Below, in pieces: positions 1-8,575 of a stretch of DNA of 15,665 nucleotides. The first letter of the stretch is position 1. Every line of letters starts with the position of its first letter. The stretch is from the IMG/VR virus record IMGVR_UViG_3300031998_000029, positions 1 to 15,665 of that record. The stretch is one strand, 5' to 3'. Under the pieces are notes generated by a model. That model was not told where the DNA came from. It made no database searches and saw nothing but the letters and a program-made list of their open reading frames with translations. Both the position numbers and the translations under genes were made by a program. Source of the stretch: a virus. Lineage: Duplodnaviria; Heunggongvirae; Uroviricota; Caudoviricetes.

Positions 1-4
1 AGTG

Positions 5-104
5 TCGGTCGCTCGGTCGGTCGGTCGCTCGGTCGGTCGGTCGCTCGGTCGGTCGGTCGCTCGGTCGGTCGGTCGCTCGGTCGGTCGGTCGCTCGGTCGG
101 TCGG
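5..104. repeat. Perfect tandem repeat, 16-nt unit TCGCTCGGTCGGTCGG x6 (9-104) plus a leading TCGG
   Basis: Read directly: 4-mers TCGG/TCGC arranged as one TCGC followed by three TCGG, with no spacers. Confidence 0.95.
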
Positions 105-126
105 TATGTTGTCCTTTATTGGATAG

Positions 127-165
127 CTTATACCGAAACAACAGAATGGTGTGTTTCGGTATGGG
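127..165. promoter_or_regulatory. Inverted repeat / 5'-leader hairpin upstream of the first gene
   Basis: ATACCGAAACA (130-140) pairs with TGTTTCGGTAT (152-162), an 11-bp perfect stem extendable by G-U pairs. Function is unknown. Confidence 0.5.
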
Positions 166-196
166 TTACCCCAACAAAATAAAGGAGGACATAATC

Positions 197-1033
197 ATGG
201 CAAAGACCAAGAAAGCAACCGCAGTAGCAGAGGCAGAGGAGACCGTCGCAGTCGTTACGACGAAGCTCGAAAAGCTCAGAAAAGACATGCGCGACACGGC
301 AACTGCATACGCCGCCGCATACAATCGTCGCGAGTCGAAAAGAAACCTCAAGCCCCTCCGTGAAGCAGCCAACGCCGCACTTCAGGAGTACAACCTGGAG
401 CTCGCAGCAGAGACATTCCGCAGGTGGGACAAAGAGGGCGAGCCGGTGAAAACCGCAATCCGCGAGAGGTATGTGCCTCATGCGCAGAAGTGCAGCTTCA
501 AGACCAACGACGACGATGTAATGACGGTCGTCTTCAGTGACACCGATTACAAGGTCAATCTCCCCATGCTCTGCAAAATCGTCGGGATCGAAAAGTTCGC
601 AAGTCCGAACTGGTTCGAAAAGGTGGAACGCCTTGCATGGCTTCTCGCAGGAAGTCTCAACAAGGAACTCGGAGACAATCCGATGTTCGACTATGAGATA
701 TCAGAGGCCACCAAAGCATTCAACTTCCCCGAAGAGATCAACCCGCATTCCGATGAGGGGACTCTCGCAGCACTCCAGCAGGTGTTCGACTCCATCCTGT
801 TTATCCCCGATGAAAAGGGCGATAACATCATTCAGGTCAAGAGTAAGACCCTTGATAACAACCACGTATCCGCAAAAGAGTGGGCGTCCATCAAGAACTC
901 TATGACTTACAAGGGCAAGCGCCCGGGTGAAGTCGTAATCGGCAACACCGGCTTGATGACTGAGCTTGTGGCAGACGCCATGCACGTCATATCCACGCTC
1001 GGCGACTTCAAGCTGTGCACTGCTGACAAGTAA
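197..1033 (+). CDS. Hypothetical phage protein, 278 aa (MAKTKKATAVAEAEE...), probably highly expressed
   Basis: SD AAAGGAGG at 181-188 precedes ATG 197. Codon use is strongly biased to AAG/AAC/ATC/TTC. The upstream extension in the ORF track is just translation of the tandem repeat. Confidence 0.85.
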   Translation: MAKTKKATAVAEAEETVAVVTTKLEKLRKDMRDTATAYAAAYNRRESKRNLKPLREAANAALQEYNLELAAETFRRWDKEGEPVKTAIRERYVPHAQKCSFKTNDDDVMTVVFSDTDYKVNLPMLCKIVGIEKFASPNWFEKVERLAWLLAGSLNKELGDNPMFDYEISEATKAFNFPEEINPHSDEGTLAALQQVFDSILFIPDEKGDNIIQVKSKTLDNNHVSAKEWASIKNSMTYKGKRPGEVVIGNTGLMTELVADAMHVISTLGDFKLCTADK

Positions 1034-1049
1034 TCCATAGCACGCGCAA

Positions 1050-1071
1050 AAGCCGGGAGCAATCCCGGCTT
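1050..1071 (+). other. GC-rich hairpin immediately 5' of twister ribozyme 1
   Basis: AAGCCGGGA-GCAA-TCCCGGCTT, a 9-bp stem with no U-tract. Confidence 0.75.
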
Positions 1072-1123
1072 CCTTAATGCAGCCAATGACGGTCACAAGC
1101 CCGTATAAATGCAGAGTGAGGAA
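1070..1123 (+). ncRNA. Twister ribozyme (type P1), copy 1; predicted cleavage U1075|A1076
   Basis: P1 TTCCT/AGGAA; UAA; P2 TGCA/TGCA; P4 ACGG/CCGT; loop TCACAAGC; pseudoknots CAC/GTG and GC/GC; conserved GA after P2. This matches the known twister core (UAA-P2-GC...CGG-U-NNN-AAGC-CCG...P2'-GA-NNN-P1'). Confidence 0.9.
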
Positions 1124-1325
1124 CGCACTTATAAGCGCATGTTATAAGAGTACATTTGCTATCAAATGCGTCGCCGGCAGCATGAGGAATTAAGCCCATG
1201 GTTCGGATAGTGAAAACCGCCGGAGTTAAACCGAGTTAGATGTGAAACAAGGTCGCATATGGTTTAAATGCGTCAACAAAACTAACCGAAAATAGAGATT
1301 ATTAGGTTTTATAAACCTATAAATC

Positions 1326-1369
1326 AAGCAGTCAACCGCCGGGCTTTCTGGTCTGTTGACTGCTTTCTT
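1326..1369 (+). terminator. Intrinsic terminator-like hairpin, possibly bidirectional
   Basis: AAGCAGTCAAC (1326-1336) / GTTGACTGCTT (1355-1365), followed by TCTT. Confidence 0.6.
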
Positions 1370-1481
1370 ATAGGCTTATAGGGTTTTTCATATCCAATCC
1401 TACAACCAACAACACCTCCGGGTTTTTGAAATATCAGGCTTCATGTGCTACCTCCTTCTTAAGCCGGGTTTTTTCCCGGCG

Positions 1482-1531
1482 TCCTAATGCAGCCGTTGGC
1501 GGTCACAAGCCCGCATAAATGCAGAGTGGGA
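1482..1531 (+). ncRNA. Twister ribozyme (type P1), copy 2; predicted cleavage U1485|A1486
   Basis: Same core as copy 1, with a compensatory change in P4 (GCGG/CCGC vs ACGG/CCGT). P1 is short (TCC/GGA). Preceded by hairpin GCCGGG-TTTTTT-CCCGGC (1463-1480). Confidence 0.88.
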
Positions 1532-1571
1532 ATTTAAGACAACTATCGACGATTTATTAAGAGGGTTTTTC

Positions 1572-1757
1572 ATGTCATACGAAAGCTTTAAATGCTGGGT
1601 TTTTTCCCTAGCAAGCAACAGCGGTTCGTTTGTTGTGGTTTCTAAGGATGACTCAACGCATACATATTGCGCGGATTTTCCAGACGGAACCAGACTTACG
1701 GTAAACCCTGACAGCGGGAAAACAAGGTTGGATTTTGGGAAAAAGGTGATTTGTTGA
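1572..1757 (+). CDS. Small hypothetical protein, 61 aa; paralog of 3265-3468
   Basis: SD-like AAGAGGG precedes the ATG. Shares FK...Y.A.FPDGTR with 3265-3468. Confidence 0.7.
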   Translation: MSYESFKCWVFSLASNSGSFVVVSKDDSTHTYCADFPDGTRLTVNPDSGKTRLDFGKKVIC

Positions 1758-1777
1758 GAAACATTTTAGGGTTTTCA

Positions 1778-1806
1778 TTGAATTATATCGCCCAGCTTGA
1801 TATAAT
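1778..1806 (+). promoter_or_regulatory. sigma70/sigmaA-type promoter with extended -10
   Basis: TTGAAT (1778-1783), 17-nt spacer, TG at 1798-1799, TATAAT (1801-1806). Confidence 0.75.
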
Positions 1807-1835
1807 TTATCACAGAAGGGCGGTGTGCGGGAAAT

Positions 1836-2525
1836 ATGGAATTTGAAAAAATCCGCATGGTTTTTTCAAAAGGGAATATCATAACGACTCCGAAAGGGTT
1901 GTCGGCGGTATATACAAGCCGGGAATCCTGGGTTGTGCAGAATATAACGGAAAACGCCTTTGAAGTTCTAAAGGAAATGATAAGGGTTTCCGACGGGTTT
2001 ACATTCGATACATCCGGGAATTTGATTTGCTTTACATTTCACGGGTATTTTGCAACAGAAAACATGGTTTTATATCCTGCGGTGGAAAATCAGATGTCCA
2101 TCGAGGAAATGAAAAATATGGTTTCGGCTTTTTCAAACCCCGACAAAGAGAGGGAATTTGCCGATTTTTTCATAGGCGTGGATATTAACGATCCGGACGC
2201 TTCTCTGTCGAGGCTTTTGGAATGGTATAACGAGAAAATAAAAGTAAATACGCTCGATTTTTCGGCTTTTAAACGCTGGAAAGATATGATTCGGTTTTTC
2301 AGGGTTCTCAAATCTCAGGGTTTTTTTGCAGACGCGGAAATTTCAGAGCCGGAAGACGGGTTTAACGGGTGTATTTCGATTCATATAACCCCGGAAATTC
2401 AGGATAACAGGGTTTTTCGCGGGAAATCAAAAGACGACTTGTTAAATCTTATTAATGCGTCCGGGGCTTTTGATTTTGAATGTTTGGTTTCCGAGGGTTT
2501 TTTAAATCTTGATTTTTACTCATAA
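1836..2525 (+). CDS. Hypothetical protein, 229 aa
   Basis: Long ORF downstream of the promoter and ending before a terminator. No family recognised. Confidence 0.75.
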   Translation: MEFEKIRMVFSKGNIITTPKGLSAVYTSRESWVVQNITENAFEVLKEMIRVSDGFTFDTSGNLICFTFHGYFATENMVLYPAVENQMSIEEMKNMVSAFSNPDKEREFADFFIGVDINDPDASLSRLLEWYNEKIKVNTLDFSAFKRWKDMIRFFRVLKSQGFFADAEISEPEDGFNGCISIHITPEIQDNRVFRGKSKDDLLNLINASGAFDFECLVSEGFLNLDFYS

Positions 2526-2544
2526 GTACATATAAATCAAAACG

Positions 2545-2575
2545 GCAACCGGCGGATTTTCGCTGGTTGCTTTTT
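2545..2575 (+). terminator. Intrinsic terminator
   Basis: GCAACCGGCG-GATTTT-CGCTGGTTGC followed by TTTTT. Confidence 0.75.
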
Positions 2576-2644
2576 AATTTGAATTACCTTCATTCTTCAT
2601 ATTGGTTTCCTCCTTTCGATTGCCCGGGGTTTCCCGGGCTTTAT

Positions 2645-2697
2645 GCCACCATGTGTATGCCTCCTCGTGGCGGTGGCGGGTAATGCAAAATACACAT
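2645..2697 (+). ncRNA. Minimal HDV-like ribozyme lacking P4 (theta/minimal-type fold); predicted cleavage 5' of G2645
   Basis: P1 GCCACC/GGTGGC (2645-2650/2672-2677); P2 ATGTGTAT/ATACACAT (2651-2658/2690-2697); P3 GCC/GGC; L3 TCCTCGT; P1.1 CC/GG (2663-2664/2678-2679); candidate catalytic C2686 in G-C-AAA. This is the nested double pseudoknot of HDV ribozymes. Preceded by hairpin GCCCGGG-GTTT-CCCGGGC. Confidence 0.87.
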
Positions 2698-2716: not shown

Positions 2717-2950
2717 ATGGAAAATCCGAGAGGCGATAAGCTCGCAATCGTAATAGGCAGGAATCGCAGGGTTTATACGCGGTTTCTCAAAAAGGAAAGT
2801 TCTATCCGAGACTTTGCAAATCGATATGCGGATAGAGAGAGGGAAAAGTCCCGCGCCGAGGGATTCGAGCCGGTGGGTATGGAATTAGAAAAACCTAACG
2901 AAACCACCTTTATATTCACGATCAAATACTCGGAGGGAATTTTAAAATGA
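2717..2950 (+). CDS. Hypothetical protein, 77 aa
   Basis: SD AGGAGG directly downstream of the ribozyme. Confidence 0.75.
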   Translation: MENPRGDKLAIVIGRNRRVYTRFLKKESSIRDFANRYADREREKSRAEGFEPVGMELEKPNETTFIFTIKYSEGILK

Positions 2951-3211: not shown

Positions 3212-3243
3212 ACACCGGCAGGGTTTTTGCCGGTGTATTTTTT
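3212..3243 (+). terminator. Intrinsic terminator
   Basis: ACACCGGCA-GGGTTTT-TGCCGGTGT, then A and T6. Confidence 0.7.
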
Positions 3244-6521: not shown

Positions 6522-6642
6522 GCCCCGATAGCTCAATTGGTTAGAGCACGTAAAATAAGGTTTGTTTATGAAAATCTTTGACAGCAAAAAGATAATTGCT
6601 CTTGTAAAGCCGAGGTTGCAGGTTCGAGTCCTGCTCGGGGCA
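6522..6642 (+). tRNA. tRNA-Thr(TGT) interrupted by a 47-nt insertion in the anticodon stem (intron-like element or pseudo-tRNA); no encoded CCA
   Basis: Acceptor GCCCCGA/TCGGGGC; D arm GCTC/GAGC; T arm GCAGG-TTCGAGT-CCTGC. Removing 6551-6597 restores a perfect anticodon stem CGGCT/AGCCG with loop CT-TGT-AA. Confidence 0.75.
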
Positions 6643-6649
6643 TTTTTAT

Positions 6650-6713
6650 CCGGCGGTAGCTTAACAGGTAAAGCGTGGAGCGATGGTTGCGGGTTCGAGA
6701 CCCGCCCGCCGGC
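6650..6713 (+). ncRNA. tRNA-like element lacking the anticodon arm
   Basis: Acceptor CCGGCGG/CCGCCGG; TA; D arm GCTT/AAGC; T arm GCGGG-TTCGAGA-CCCGC. Only 13 nt (6676-6688) lie between position 26 and the T stem, where a normal tRNA has about 22. Confidence 0.7.
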
Positions 6714-6973: not shown

Positions 6974-7006
6974 GTGGGGTTAAAAAACAGAAAGGGGTTA
7001 ATTAAA

Positions 7007-8575
7007 ATGGGTTTTTATGACGCGATTAACGACGAGCTTCTCGAAGGCTCAAACGTATCCGTGACTGAAAACGGAGCGATAGGCTACCGAACTACCGGCA
7101 AAAATCTGCTCGATTTAAACTTTGCGGTTGCTTCTTTGCGTTTCGCATCCGACGAGGATATTATTGCCAGATTCAAGAAAGCCTTTTTTGAGGATAAAAT
7201 GCTTGCCATGAAGTGGCTGTTCTTCGCTCGTGATATCAGGGGCGGTCTCGGAGAGCGTCGGCTTTTCCGCACAGCCATGCGGTTTATAGCAGACTACGAT
7301 CCCAGCATTGTTATAAACCTGATTCCCCTTATCGCAGAATACGGCAGGTTTGATGACCTGTGGGAATTTCTTGAATATCCGGAGATATATCCGGAGATCA
7401 TCGACTACATTCGCGCCCAGCTTCTCTCAGACATAGAAGACCGACGGGACGGCAATTCGATTTCTCTTCTTGCCAAATGGCTGCCGTCCGTAAACGCATC
7501 TTCCGCAAGAAGTAAGAAGTATTCAAGGATGATTTGCAACGGGCTCGGAACGAAAGTGTCTACGTATCGCAAGACTCTCAGCAGCCTCAGACGATATCTC
7601 AATGTCGTTGAACAGAAGATGTCTGCCGGAGAATGGAGAAATATAAATTACGAAGCCGTCCCGTCCCGTGCCAACCTTATCTATAAGGATGCATTCCTTC
7701 GCCACGACGAAAAGAGGCGCCGGAAATTTTTGTCAGCGCTTGAAAGGGGCGAAGCGAAAATCAACTCAGCCGTGCTTTATCCGCACGATATAGTCCATAA
7801 ATATATGGTTGATAATTTTTACCGTATGGATTTACGTTATCGCGACGAAGCCATAGAAGCAATGTGGAAATCGCTTCCCGATATGGTTAAAGGCGGCGGA
7901 AATACTATCGTAGTCGCTGACGGTTCCGGGTCAATGTGTTGCAAAGTGGGAGACGGAAACAGCTCACTAACCGCACTGGAAGTAGCCGACGCATTGGCGA
8001 TCTATTTTGCAGAACATTCGTCCGGTGAATTTCGGAATAAATATATCACATTCTCCGAGCACCCGCAGCTCGTTGATTTTTCAAAAGCATCGAGCTTGCA
8101 TGACAAGCTCAACATTGCATTGTCACACAACGAAGTCGCAAACACTAACATAGAGGCAGTCTTCGACCTGATTCTGAAAACCGCAGTCAGCAATCATATG
8201 CGTCAGGATGAAATTCCCGCAAACATTCTGATCATATCCGATATGGAATTCGATGGGTGCGCGTGCACTAATGACGGATACTGCTGGGGCGGCTTGCCTC
8301 AGAATTTATTCAAGACAATCGAGCAGAAATATATAGCAGCGGGGTACAAGCTCCCCAGGCTCGTATTCTGGAACGTCAATTCCCGCACCAACACAATTCC
8401 CGTACGCGAAAATGATATGGGCGTCGCGCTTGTCAGCGGTTTTTCTGTCAATATCTGCAAAATGATCATGAGCGGCAAGACCGACCCGTACGAGTGCCTT
8501 TTGGAAACCATCAACTCCGAGAGATATCAGCCTGTTGAGGATGTGTTAAAAGAAAATAAGAGGGTTTTCATATGA
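7007..8575 (+). CDS. DUF2828-family protein (TROVE/Ro60-related helical region plus C-terminal vWA domain), 522 aa
   Basis: Recognised motifs TENGA..Y.TTG..LLDL, RDIRGGLGER, YGRFDDL, AKWLPS, LYPHDIV, the vWA MIDAS-like VVADGSGSM, ISDMEFD, LVFWNV and LVSGFS. ATG 7007 follows SD AAAGGGG. Confidence 0.85.
   Translation: MGFYDAINDELLEGSNVSVTENGAIGYRTTGKNLLDLNFAVASLRFASDEDIIARFKKAFFEDKMLAMKWLFFARDIRGGLGERRLFRTAMRFIADYDPSIVINLIPLIAEYGRFDDLWEFLEYPEIYPEIIDYIRAQLLSDIEDRRDGNSISLLAKWLPSVNASSARSKKYSRMICNGLGTKVSTYRKTLSSLRRYLNVVEQKMSAGEWRNINYEAVPSRANLIYKDAFLRHDEKRRRKFLSALERGEAKINSAVLYPHDIVHKYMVDNFYRMDLRYRDEAIEAMWKSLPDMVKGGGNTIVVADGSGSMCCKVGDGNSSLTALEVADALAIYFAEHSSGEFRNKYITFSEHPQLVDFSKASSLHDKLNIALSHNEVANTNIEAVFDLILKTAVSNHMRQDEIPANILIISDMEFDGCACTNDGYCWGGLPQNLFKTIEQKYIAAGYKLPRLVFWNVNSRTNTIPVRENDMGVALVSGFSVNICKMIMSGKTDPYECLLETINSERYQPVEDVLKENKRVFI

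Follow-up and report, generated by a model that had tools for sequence, protein, structure and literature searches.

In the window, by which we mean the 15,665 nucleotides (nt), about 15.7 kb, that open the 114.9-kb IMG/VR record IMGVR_UViG_3300031998_000029 (Caudoviricetes; a gut or rumen phage of 115 kb, with a completeness estimate of 97%), three predicted self-cleaving ribozymes of two unrelated classes stand between the first genes. Two of them are twister ribozymes and the third is a minimal ribozyme of the hepatitis delta virus (HDV)-like group, of the theta type; each of them, together with the stable G+C hairpin found immediately 5' of it, may be regarded as a two-part module. We favour, at odds slightly better than even (about 0.55), the reading that these modules cut a polycistronic transcript without the help of proteins and leave separately stable pieces with protected ends. 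Several ribozymes flank genes on the coding strand within about 2 kb, and the same layout is found in a related phage; the locus clearly exemplifies an arrangement already known from phages and is not a new kind of system, given that both twisters in the vicinity of phage genes and gut-phage ribozymes of the minimal HDV-like type had been described before. What is added here is a hairpin partner that recurs in two ribozyme classes, for which no priority is claimed over the original twister literature, the exchange of ribozyme class in orthologous slots, a RAGATH-16 RNA bounded by two twisters and a lineage-specific CCUCCUU box.

The initial annotation of this DNA, made from its letters alone, had placed two twisters and one HDV-like ribozyme within 1.65 kb, on the coding strand, between genes and each directly behind a similar GC hairpin. 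All of these points were borne out, by the matches to the Rfam family RF03160, by a unique descriptor site, by the list of open reading frames (ORFs) and by a GCC(C)GGG arm present on all three hairpins. In particular, the three ribozymes are all intergenic and lie on the + strand, which also carries those listed ORFs for which the sister phage has relatives. The RAGATH-16 RNA and an intrinsic terminator (Table 1) were absent from that annotation; its observation is confirmed and its interpretation is partly supported, as detailed below.

Ribozymes of two unrelated classes

Both twisters match RF03160 over the full length of the model, twister 1 with 60.4 bits (E 1e-12 in a 2-kb search and 1.7e-14 in the whole genome) and twister 2 with 54.8 bits (E 5e-11 and 6e-13, respectively). 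In the cmscan alignments the type-P1 order of P1, P2 and P4 is present in both, every invariant position of the model is found, including the U-A cleavage dinucleotide, and the pseudoknots T1 and T2 are formed. An exact pattern for this P3-less core, which fixed most core positions and left P1 and part of P4 free to vary, retrieved 26 further viral contigs. Across 16 distinct related twister sequences 93% of the cells are paired, a value reached by none of 500 shuffles; P1 and the outer P4 pair covary, with both sides changed, and T1 and T2 are 100% paired, the middle T2 pair being A-U in all 16 sequences and C-G in the Rfam consensus, a change that involves both sides. The window twisters share with the type-P1 twisters of RF03160 the helices P1, P2 and P4, the pseudoknots T1 and T2, the U-A cut site and the conserved core, whereas they differ in having no P3, a score below the cut-off, the A-U pair in the middle of T2 and a hairpin 5' of P1, a place where the family model has no conserved hairpin. 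They look like active self-cleaving ribozymes, as does the HDV-like one considered next. Type-P1 twisters were reportedly described by Roth and colleagues in 2014, and are found near phage genes.

The third ribozyme was located by a theta descriptor built on the published layout, as given by the delimited sequences that Kienbeck et al. 2024 (PMC10879173) provide as supplementary material, and asking for a perfect P1 (6 bp), P2 (6-8 bp) and P3 (3 bp) and for the CC/GG of P1.1. The descriptor has a single match in the 114.9 kb; as to the controls, 707 kb of DNA from unrelated phages gave none and 150 block-shuffled genomes together gave one (about 0.007 per genome). In the resulting fold P1 (2645-2650/2672-2677) has 6 bp, P2 (2651-2658/2690-2697) has 8 bp and P3 (2659-2661/2669-2671) has 3 bp, L3 is 7 nt long and carries the CC of P1.1 (C2663-C2664 with G2678-G2679), and the place of P4 is taken by an L4 of the common type, 6 nt long. 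C2686, which opens J4/2 and is followed by AAA, would be the catalytic cytosine, in agreement with the assignment made by the initial annotation. A comparison with Rfam, which that annotation had proposed as a check, gave matches for the twisters and weak ones for the HDV models, both of which expect a P4 helix (RF02682, 20.6 bits and E 0.62 with a gathering score of 44; RF00094, 20.2 bits with one of 50). A pattern of 15 specified bases covering only the stretch from L3 to L4 retrieved 69 viral loci from IMG/VR, most of which share the fold with many different P1 and P2 sequences, and P1 and P2 fully covary in the orthologue of the sister phage. The variable J1/2 of these sequences was aligned inconsistently by MAFFT, and the descriptor with its controls was used in place of a covariance model.

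The HDV-like ribozyme is similar to the published theta ribozymes (PMC10879173; drz-Mtgn-1) in the lengths and order of its domains, in the types of L3 and L4 and in the catalytic C of J4/2, and its setting, a Caudoviricetes contig of gut type whose genome encodes a DRB0094-type RNA ligase, is also the same. Unlike them, it has a G+C hairpin in the place of the tRNA and a 6-bp P1 that starts with G-C, and no CCA-adding enzyme was found in the genome. The cut is not within 5 nt of a tRNA 3' end and has the hairpin upstream instead, which assigns this copy to the 'isolated' subgroup, comprising about 500 theta ribozymes without a proposed function (PMC10879173).

Upstream hairpins, related phages and the RNA between the twisters

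The three hairpins have stems of 6-9 bp made only of G+C, carry no T-run and end 4-5 nt before the cleavage sites; their folding energies are -17.7, -13.3 and -16.1 kcal/mol for hairpins 1, 2 and 3, respectively. The GCC(C)GGG arm occurs in just these three of the 43 perfect G+C-rich hairpins of the genome, in which, unlike the ribozyme hairpins, real terminators made of a hairpin and a T-run are present elsewhere. With the hairpin included, the native P1, P2 and P4 helices are found in the minimum-energy fold.

The association of hairpin and ribozyme is not peculiar to this phage. In fact, the 26 further viral contigs provide 19 distinct twister contexts, and in 17 of these the upstream sequence folds into a hairpin of -12 kcal/mol or lower, a threshold reached by 11% of random 46-mers drawn from the same loci, and the hairpin sequences of these contexts are unrelated to each other. 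In a commoner variant of the twister core the hairpin is present upstream in three of four cases, the fourth lying behind a promoter-like AT-rich stretch. As for the minimal HDV-like ribozymes examined, nine lie behind the 3' end of a tRNA, as in the published examples, and nine behind a hairpin that ends 2-5 nt before the cut; an upstream hairpin is found at about half of those without an adjacent tRNA. Ribosome-binding sites lie close behind many twisters and minimal HDV-like ribozymes in the surveyed contigs.

The comparative set is small and includes one full syntenic relative, the sister phage G001 (a 117-kb record). The gene upstream of its ribozyme cluster is 32% identical in protein sequence to geneA of the window (E 7e-39) and its counterpart of geneB is 22% identical (E 2e-10). 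The gene order in G001 is the same, and a stretch of 1.74 kb there contains one twister and two HDV-like ribozymes. Two modules are orthologous in the two phages, namely that of the twister preceding the last MSY-family gene and that of the HDV-like ribozyme behind geneB; in both of these modules the core and the CCUCCUU box are kept, and the sequences of P1, P2 and the hairpin are replaced. The position of the terminator behind geneB is also conserved. In the slot behind geneA a twister, the RAGATH-16 RNA and a second twister are found in this phage, but a terminator and an HDV-like ribozyme in G001, and for this reason the slot must have changed ribozyme class. The initial annotation had taken the use of unrelated classes in one architectural slot as a sign of selection for cleavage itself, and this argument gains support from the HDV-like ribozyme of G001 in the slot behind geneA. 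An alignment query in IMG/VR returned only G001 and two short metagenome contigs, and in bacterial genomes it returned nothing; single-protein searches of IMG/VR with geneA and geneB found no relatives, and in a phage collection there was nothing similar at the DNA level and no protein match of use.

The RNA segment of 410 nt bounded by the two predicted twister cuts (1076-1485) contains a full-length match to RAGATH-16 (RF03047; 68.8 bits with a gathering score of 65.6, E 8e-12). The conserved RNA to which the match belongs is longer, about 130 nt (window 1150-1279, + strand). The same RNA block, with compensatory changes, is found near the left end of G002 (L103), a 121-kb phage with direct terminal repeats, and G002 has no twister or HDV-like ribozyme. 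From the comparisons with G001, with G002 and with the short contig L240, considered below, it follows that modules have been gained, lost and exchanged in class, and that two of them persist across a deep divergence.

A further element of the cluster is the box CCUCCUU, placed 4-10 nt 5' of the ribozyme hairpin at two sites here and at both orthologous sites of G001 (L031, about 389-395 and 1526-1532; 4 and 10 nt before the hairpins). Apart from the boxes of the ribozyme cluster, the first 41 kb contain no + strand copy, and twister 1 has none. The box may be an anti-Shine-Dalgarno element acting on the RNA or, on the minus strand, a ribosome-binding site; in the latter reading it is followed by start codons, but the resulting ORFs of 8-18 amino acids (aa) are not conserved between this phage and G001. 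A scan of IMG/VR for the box joined to a twister 5' end gave, among the matches listed, only chance ones, mostly antisense gene starts. At each of the three window sites the minimum-energy fold includes a clamp helix, in which the sequence before the hairpin pairs with that behind the ribozyme; as a general feature this helix was rejected, as in 21 twister units it is not stronger than in cross-locus controls.

Proposed transcript cutting and competing explanations

In the favoured reading a long transcript of the leftward operon would be cut, without protein, into four parts at the three predicted sites (Table 1). The first would be the geneA mRNA with hairpin 1 at its 3' end, the second the 410-nt non-coding RNA with RAGATH-16 and with hairpin 2 at its 3' end, the third the mRNA of the MSY ORF and geneB, whose 3' end would be set by its own terminator or, if that is read through, by hairpin 3, and the fourth the mRNA for the small genes that come next. 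Since type-P1 twisters and HDV-like ribozymes alike cleave at the 5' edge of their own fold, each upstream piece would end in a terminator-like hairpin, 4-5 nt and a 2',3'-cyclic phosphate, and each downstream piece would begin with a 5'-OH on the compact ribozyme fold, which at twister 2 and at the HDV-like ribozyme would lie 10-40 nt before a ribosome-binding site. The initial annotation was right in predicting these products, and the chemistry of the ends would follow from that established for type-P1 twisters and HDV-like ribozymes. In keeping with the general course of bacterial mRNA decay, the upstream 3' ends would be expected to resist 3' exonucleases, with no stop imposed on RNA polymerase, and the downstream 5' ends to resist the 5'-monophosphate-dependent ribonucleases (RNases) E or J. 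The sequences themselves show the folds, the conserved catalytic residues, the association with hairpins and the exchange of ribozyme class between related phages; that the RNA is in fact cleaved, that the interval is transcribed as one unit and that the new ends are stabilising is what we infer from them. In work attributed to Felletti, Bieber and Hartig (2017), expression reportedly depends on a stabilising 3' structure left after twister cleavage, which is the role proposed here for the hairpins; that work is said to have dealt with reporters and a few bacterial twisters, and differs from the present one in having neither a survey of natural hairpin-ribozyme pairs nor HDV-like ribozymes.

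Some observations weigh against this reading. All three ribozymes fall below the Rfam gathering scores, the twisters below 67.2 and the HDV-like ribozyme below those of both HDV families; the twister scores are low because the optional P3 hairpin is absent, with four nucleotides in its place. P1 of twister 2 has 3 bp only, and the closing pair of P1 in the HDV-like ribozyme is G2645-C2677 and not the usual G-U wobble; since the same G-C pair is seen in one published theta sequence and in L077, we regard it as variation within the theta family. The HDV-like unit is preceded by the terminator of geneB, so that only read-through or an unseen promoter can feed it, and no convincing sigma-70 promoter was found between the end of the terminator (2581) and the unit. 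The first HDV-like ribozyme of G001 has no adjacent hairpin, and in L240, a short metagenome contig with a geneA 49% identical, the 550 nt that follow geneA contain a hairpin and no ribozyme; hence neither part of the module is obligatory. Finally, the statistics on hairpins come mostly from one twister subtype, selected by an exact pattern.

It is unlikely, though deserving of some weight, that the hairpins act as folding insulators, locking the upstream sequence, possibly stacking on a short P1 and speeding co-transcriptional folding of the ribozyme; the cut would be made all the same, but the benefit of the hairpin would go to the ribozyme and not to the upstream RNA. An upstream helix that sequesters an inhibitory sequence is said, in a study by Chadalavada and colleagues of 2000, to speed the folding of the genomic HDV ribozyme. 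Here the hairpins abut P1, which in twister 2 is particularly short, and the native helices survive in the minimum-energy fold with the hairpin. However, the stems are as long and as G+C-rich as those of terminators, beyond what insulation would need, the twister behind a promoter-like stretch has no hairpin, and the case of the theta ribozymes beside tRNAs makes clear that a structure lying upstream can be the very product of the cut (PMC10879173). That the twister pair serves mainly to excise and mature the 410-nt RNA, whose ends might be healed and then sealed by the phage RNA ligase, for instance into a circle, would agree with the position of RAGATH-16 exactly between the two cuts and with the DRB0094-type RNA ligase of the phage, an ATP-dependent enzyme and the only RNA-end enzyme found. 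Such ligases occur in 54.5% of theta-ribozyme phages, a 140-fold enrichment (PMC10879173). We consider this explanation quite improbable nevertheless, because G002 has the RNA without ribozymes and G001 has ribozymes without RAGATH-16. The ligase family, moreover, seals nicks with 3'-OH and 5'-phosphate, and not cyclic-phosphate/5'-OH ends. Circular or spliced products, too, were not detected from clustered hammerheads (Perreault et al., PMC3088659). Hardly more weight can be given to the idea that hairpin-ribozyme modules are fast-turnover selfish or neutral cassettes of little benefit to the phage; their presence, absence and class do vary among the three available relatives, and the flanking genes are ORFans, yet catalytic residues and helices are intact and show compensatory changes, strand and intergenic placement are strict, and two modules hold orthologous positions although the neighbouring proteins are only 22-32% identical.

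Two other explanations are much less probable. The first is a translational switch, in which CCUCCUU before hairpins 2 and 3 pairs with the downstream Shine-Dalgarno sequence across the ribozyme and the cut frees the site. The box is kept before these two hairpins and in both G001 modules in spite of about 22% identity of the neighbouring protein, and at its two sites in the window it is paired, in the minimum-energy folds, with the ribosome-binding site further downstream. We find the switch very doubtful, since the complementarity is no better than in the cross-locus control of the failed clamp test, CCUCC pairs with any Shine-Dalgarno sequence by definition, an intermolecular helix of 8-9 bp would not readily separate after the cut, the box reads on the minus strand as a ribosome-binding site followed by ATG, even though the tiny ORFs are not conserved, and twister 1 lacks it altogether. 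The other, suggested by the link that the initial annotation drew between Ro60 and RtcB, is that the ribozyme ends feed a phage-encoded RNA-repair pathway. A Ro-related protein is indeed encoded in the window, as had been noted there (Ro60-like, DUF2828 and DUF7788, at 6974-8575), and the gene and its adjoining tRNA-like RNAs, 4 kb downstream, recall the bacterial operons of rsr (Ro60), Y RNA and rtcBA. Unlike these operons, the locus lacks RtcB and RtcA partners, and nothing indicates that ribozyme products are substrates: the genome-wide search for rtcB that had been suggested gave no match to PF01139 in this 97%-complete genome, whereas the same search matches 10 of 14 control genomes, and the Ro-like gene has adjacent tRNA-like RNAs of its own. 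The pathway is scarcely credible here, and the proposed link did not hold.

Protein-free cutting into stable pieces, the reading we prefer, has precedents. Clustered hammerheads flank prophage genes and cleave within transcripts of about 2 kb, with in vitro proof provided in 2011 (Perreault et al., PMC3088659), and the cutting of long phage transcripts into gene-length RNAs, proposed in the same work, was restated in a 2019 review (PMC6765202), in which the role of most bacterial and phage self-cleaving ribozymes is called elusive. The processing or stabilisation of phage transcripts put forward by the initial annotation is therefore the standard published hypothesis (PMC3088659; PMC6765202) rather than a novel one. 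As in those prophage clusters, several ribozymes lie here within 1-2 kb on the coding strand, flanking genes or short blocks; unlike them, the window has ribozymes of two classes, twister and HDV-like, in one cluster, all of them preceded by a hairpin, and one of the bounded segments is a non-coding RNA, RAGATH-16.

The locus offers a compact test bed, in which two unrelated classes occupy the same kind of slot, a hairpin is left on the upstream product and a sister phage shows the swap, and a concrete and falsifiable function can be formulated for it, namely terminator-free protected 3' ends together with 5'-OH-capped mRNAs. Theta ribozymes beside tRNAs may represent just one instance of a more general rule. 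More tentatively, and with the balance of probability against it, a hairpin or tRNA joined to a ribozyme that cuts at its 5' edge could be a general, class-independent phage device for making exonuclease-resistant 3' ends without termination, in which twister and HDV-like ribozymes are interchangeable and which in this lineage is perhaps coupled to an upstream anti-Shine-Dalgarno box that gates translation or is released on a small RNA.

Parts of the locus and other observations

The features of the cluster are collected in Table 1. Searches of Pfam and PHROGs assigned no function to geneA, the MSY ORF, geneB or the downstream small ORFs, and the strong Shine-Dalgarno sites suggest a host of Bacillota type.

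Table 1. Predicted elements and genes of the ribozyme cluster, in window coordinates
Feature	Position	Strand	Basis and remarks
geneA, upstream ORF	2..1033	+	ORF list; stop 17 nt 5' of hairpin 1
Hairpin 1	1050..1071	+	Stem 9 bp, loop 4 nt, without T-run; abuts twister P1
Twister ribozyme 1, type P1, without P3	1071..1122	+	RF03160; predicted cut U1075/A1076
RAGATH-16 RNA	1153..1225	+	RF03047; conserved block to about 1150-1279
Non-coding stretch of about 230 nt		+	Between RAGATH-16 and first CCUCCUU box
CCUCCUU box	1451..1457	+	5 nt 5' of hairpin 2; also before orthologous G001 twister
Hairpin 2	1463..1480	+	G+C stem 6 bp, loop U6
Twister ribozyme 2, type P1, without P3, P1 just 3 bp	1481..1532	+	RF03160; predicted cut U1485/A1486
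Small ORF, 61 aa, family starting MSY	1572..1757	+	ORF list; three paralogues in G001
geneB, 229 aa, no function assigned	1836..2525	+	ORF list; G001 counterpart
Intrinsic terminator	2544..2581	+	Stem 12 bp and T-run; between geneB and HDV-like unit
CCUCCUU box	2609..2615	+	6 nt 5' of hairpin 3; also before second HDV-like ribozyme of G001
Hairpin 3	2622..2639	+	G+C stem 7 bp, loop 4 nt
Minimal HDV-like (theta-type) ribozyme	2645..2697	+	Descriptor match; predicted cut U2644/G2645
First ORF of downstream cleavage product	2717..2950	+	Shine-Dalgarno site 10-20 nt past HDV-like ribozyme

At the very start of the record there is a perfect 16-nt tandem repeat of 6.4 copies (window 4-105), which is read through by the ORF at 2-1033 and may mark a genome end or an assembly edge; since the first 100 nt or so of this ORF consist of the repeat, the true start of geneA is probably further in. 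A sigma-70-like promoter match with an extended -10 TG (10/12) is found at 1778-1806 on the + strand, between the 61-aa ORF and geneB, and if it is real geneB may also have a transcript start of its own.

In the rest of the genome, where the initial annotation had suggested a search for more ribozymes, none was found: permissive Rfam scans of the 115 kb showed no other self-cleaving ribozyme and only tRNAs and a group I intron (RF00028, 86.5 bits, L007:8944-9230, minus strand, at about 101.9-102.2 kb of the genome). The ORF of the DRB0094-type ligase lies 27 kb from the cluster (genome 29837-30940, + strand; L220:946-2049) and encodes an OB domain (PF21189) and an adenylyltransferase domain (PF09414), with a TIGR02306 match of 135 bits, the equivalog cut-off being 151. 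Upstream of the Ro60-like gene, beside the tRNA-like matches, there is a weak match to YrlA, a Y RNA-like RNA (6610-6682, + strand, 27 bits, E 0.12).

Some short repeated motifs were also noted. In the slot behind geneA of the contig L240 (L240:3150-3285) the hairpin, which has no T-run, is accompanied by a tandem pair of 16-nt motifs that end in GGTTTTTCATAA, and the similar strings GGTTTTTCAT occur in the window at 1383, 1565 and 1771. The heptamer GGGTTTT is found nine times within 1.15 kb (window 1380-2530, + strand), with 0.24 copies expected from the rest of the genome, again at 3221 and onward to about 10.4 kb; over the whole genome there are 33 copies on the + strand and 13 on the minus strand. 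Its sites are coding, in different frames, or non-coding, and include the loop of hairpin 2 and that of a hairpin at 3212-3236. Hairpin 3 has the shorter GGGGTTT, and three of the five GGGTTTT copies of G001 are inside its ribozyme cluster.

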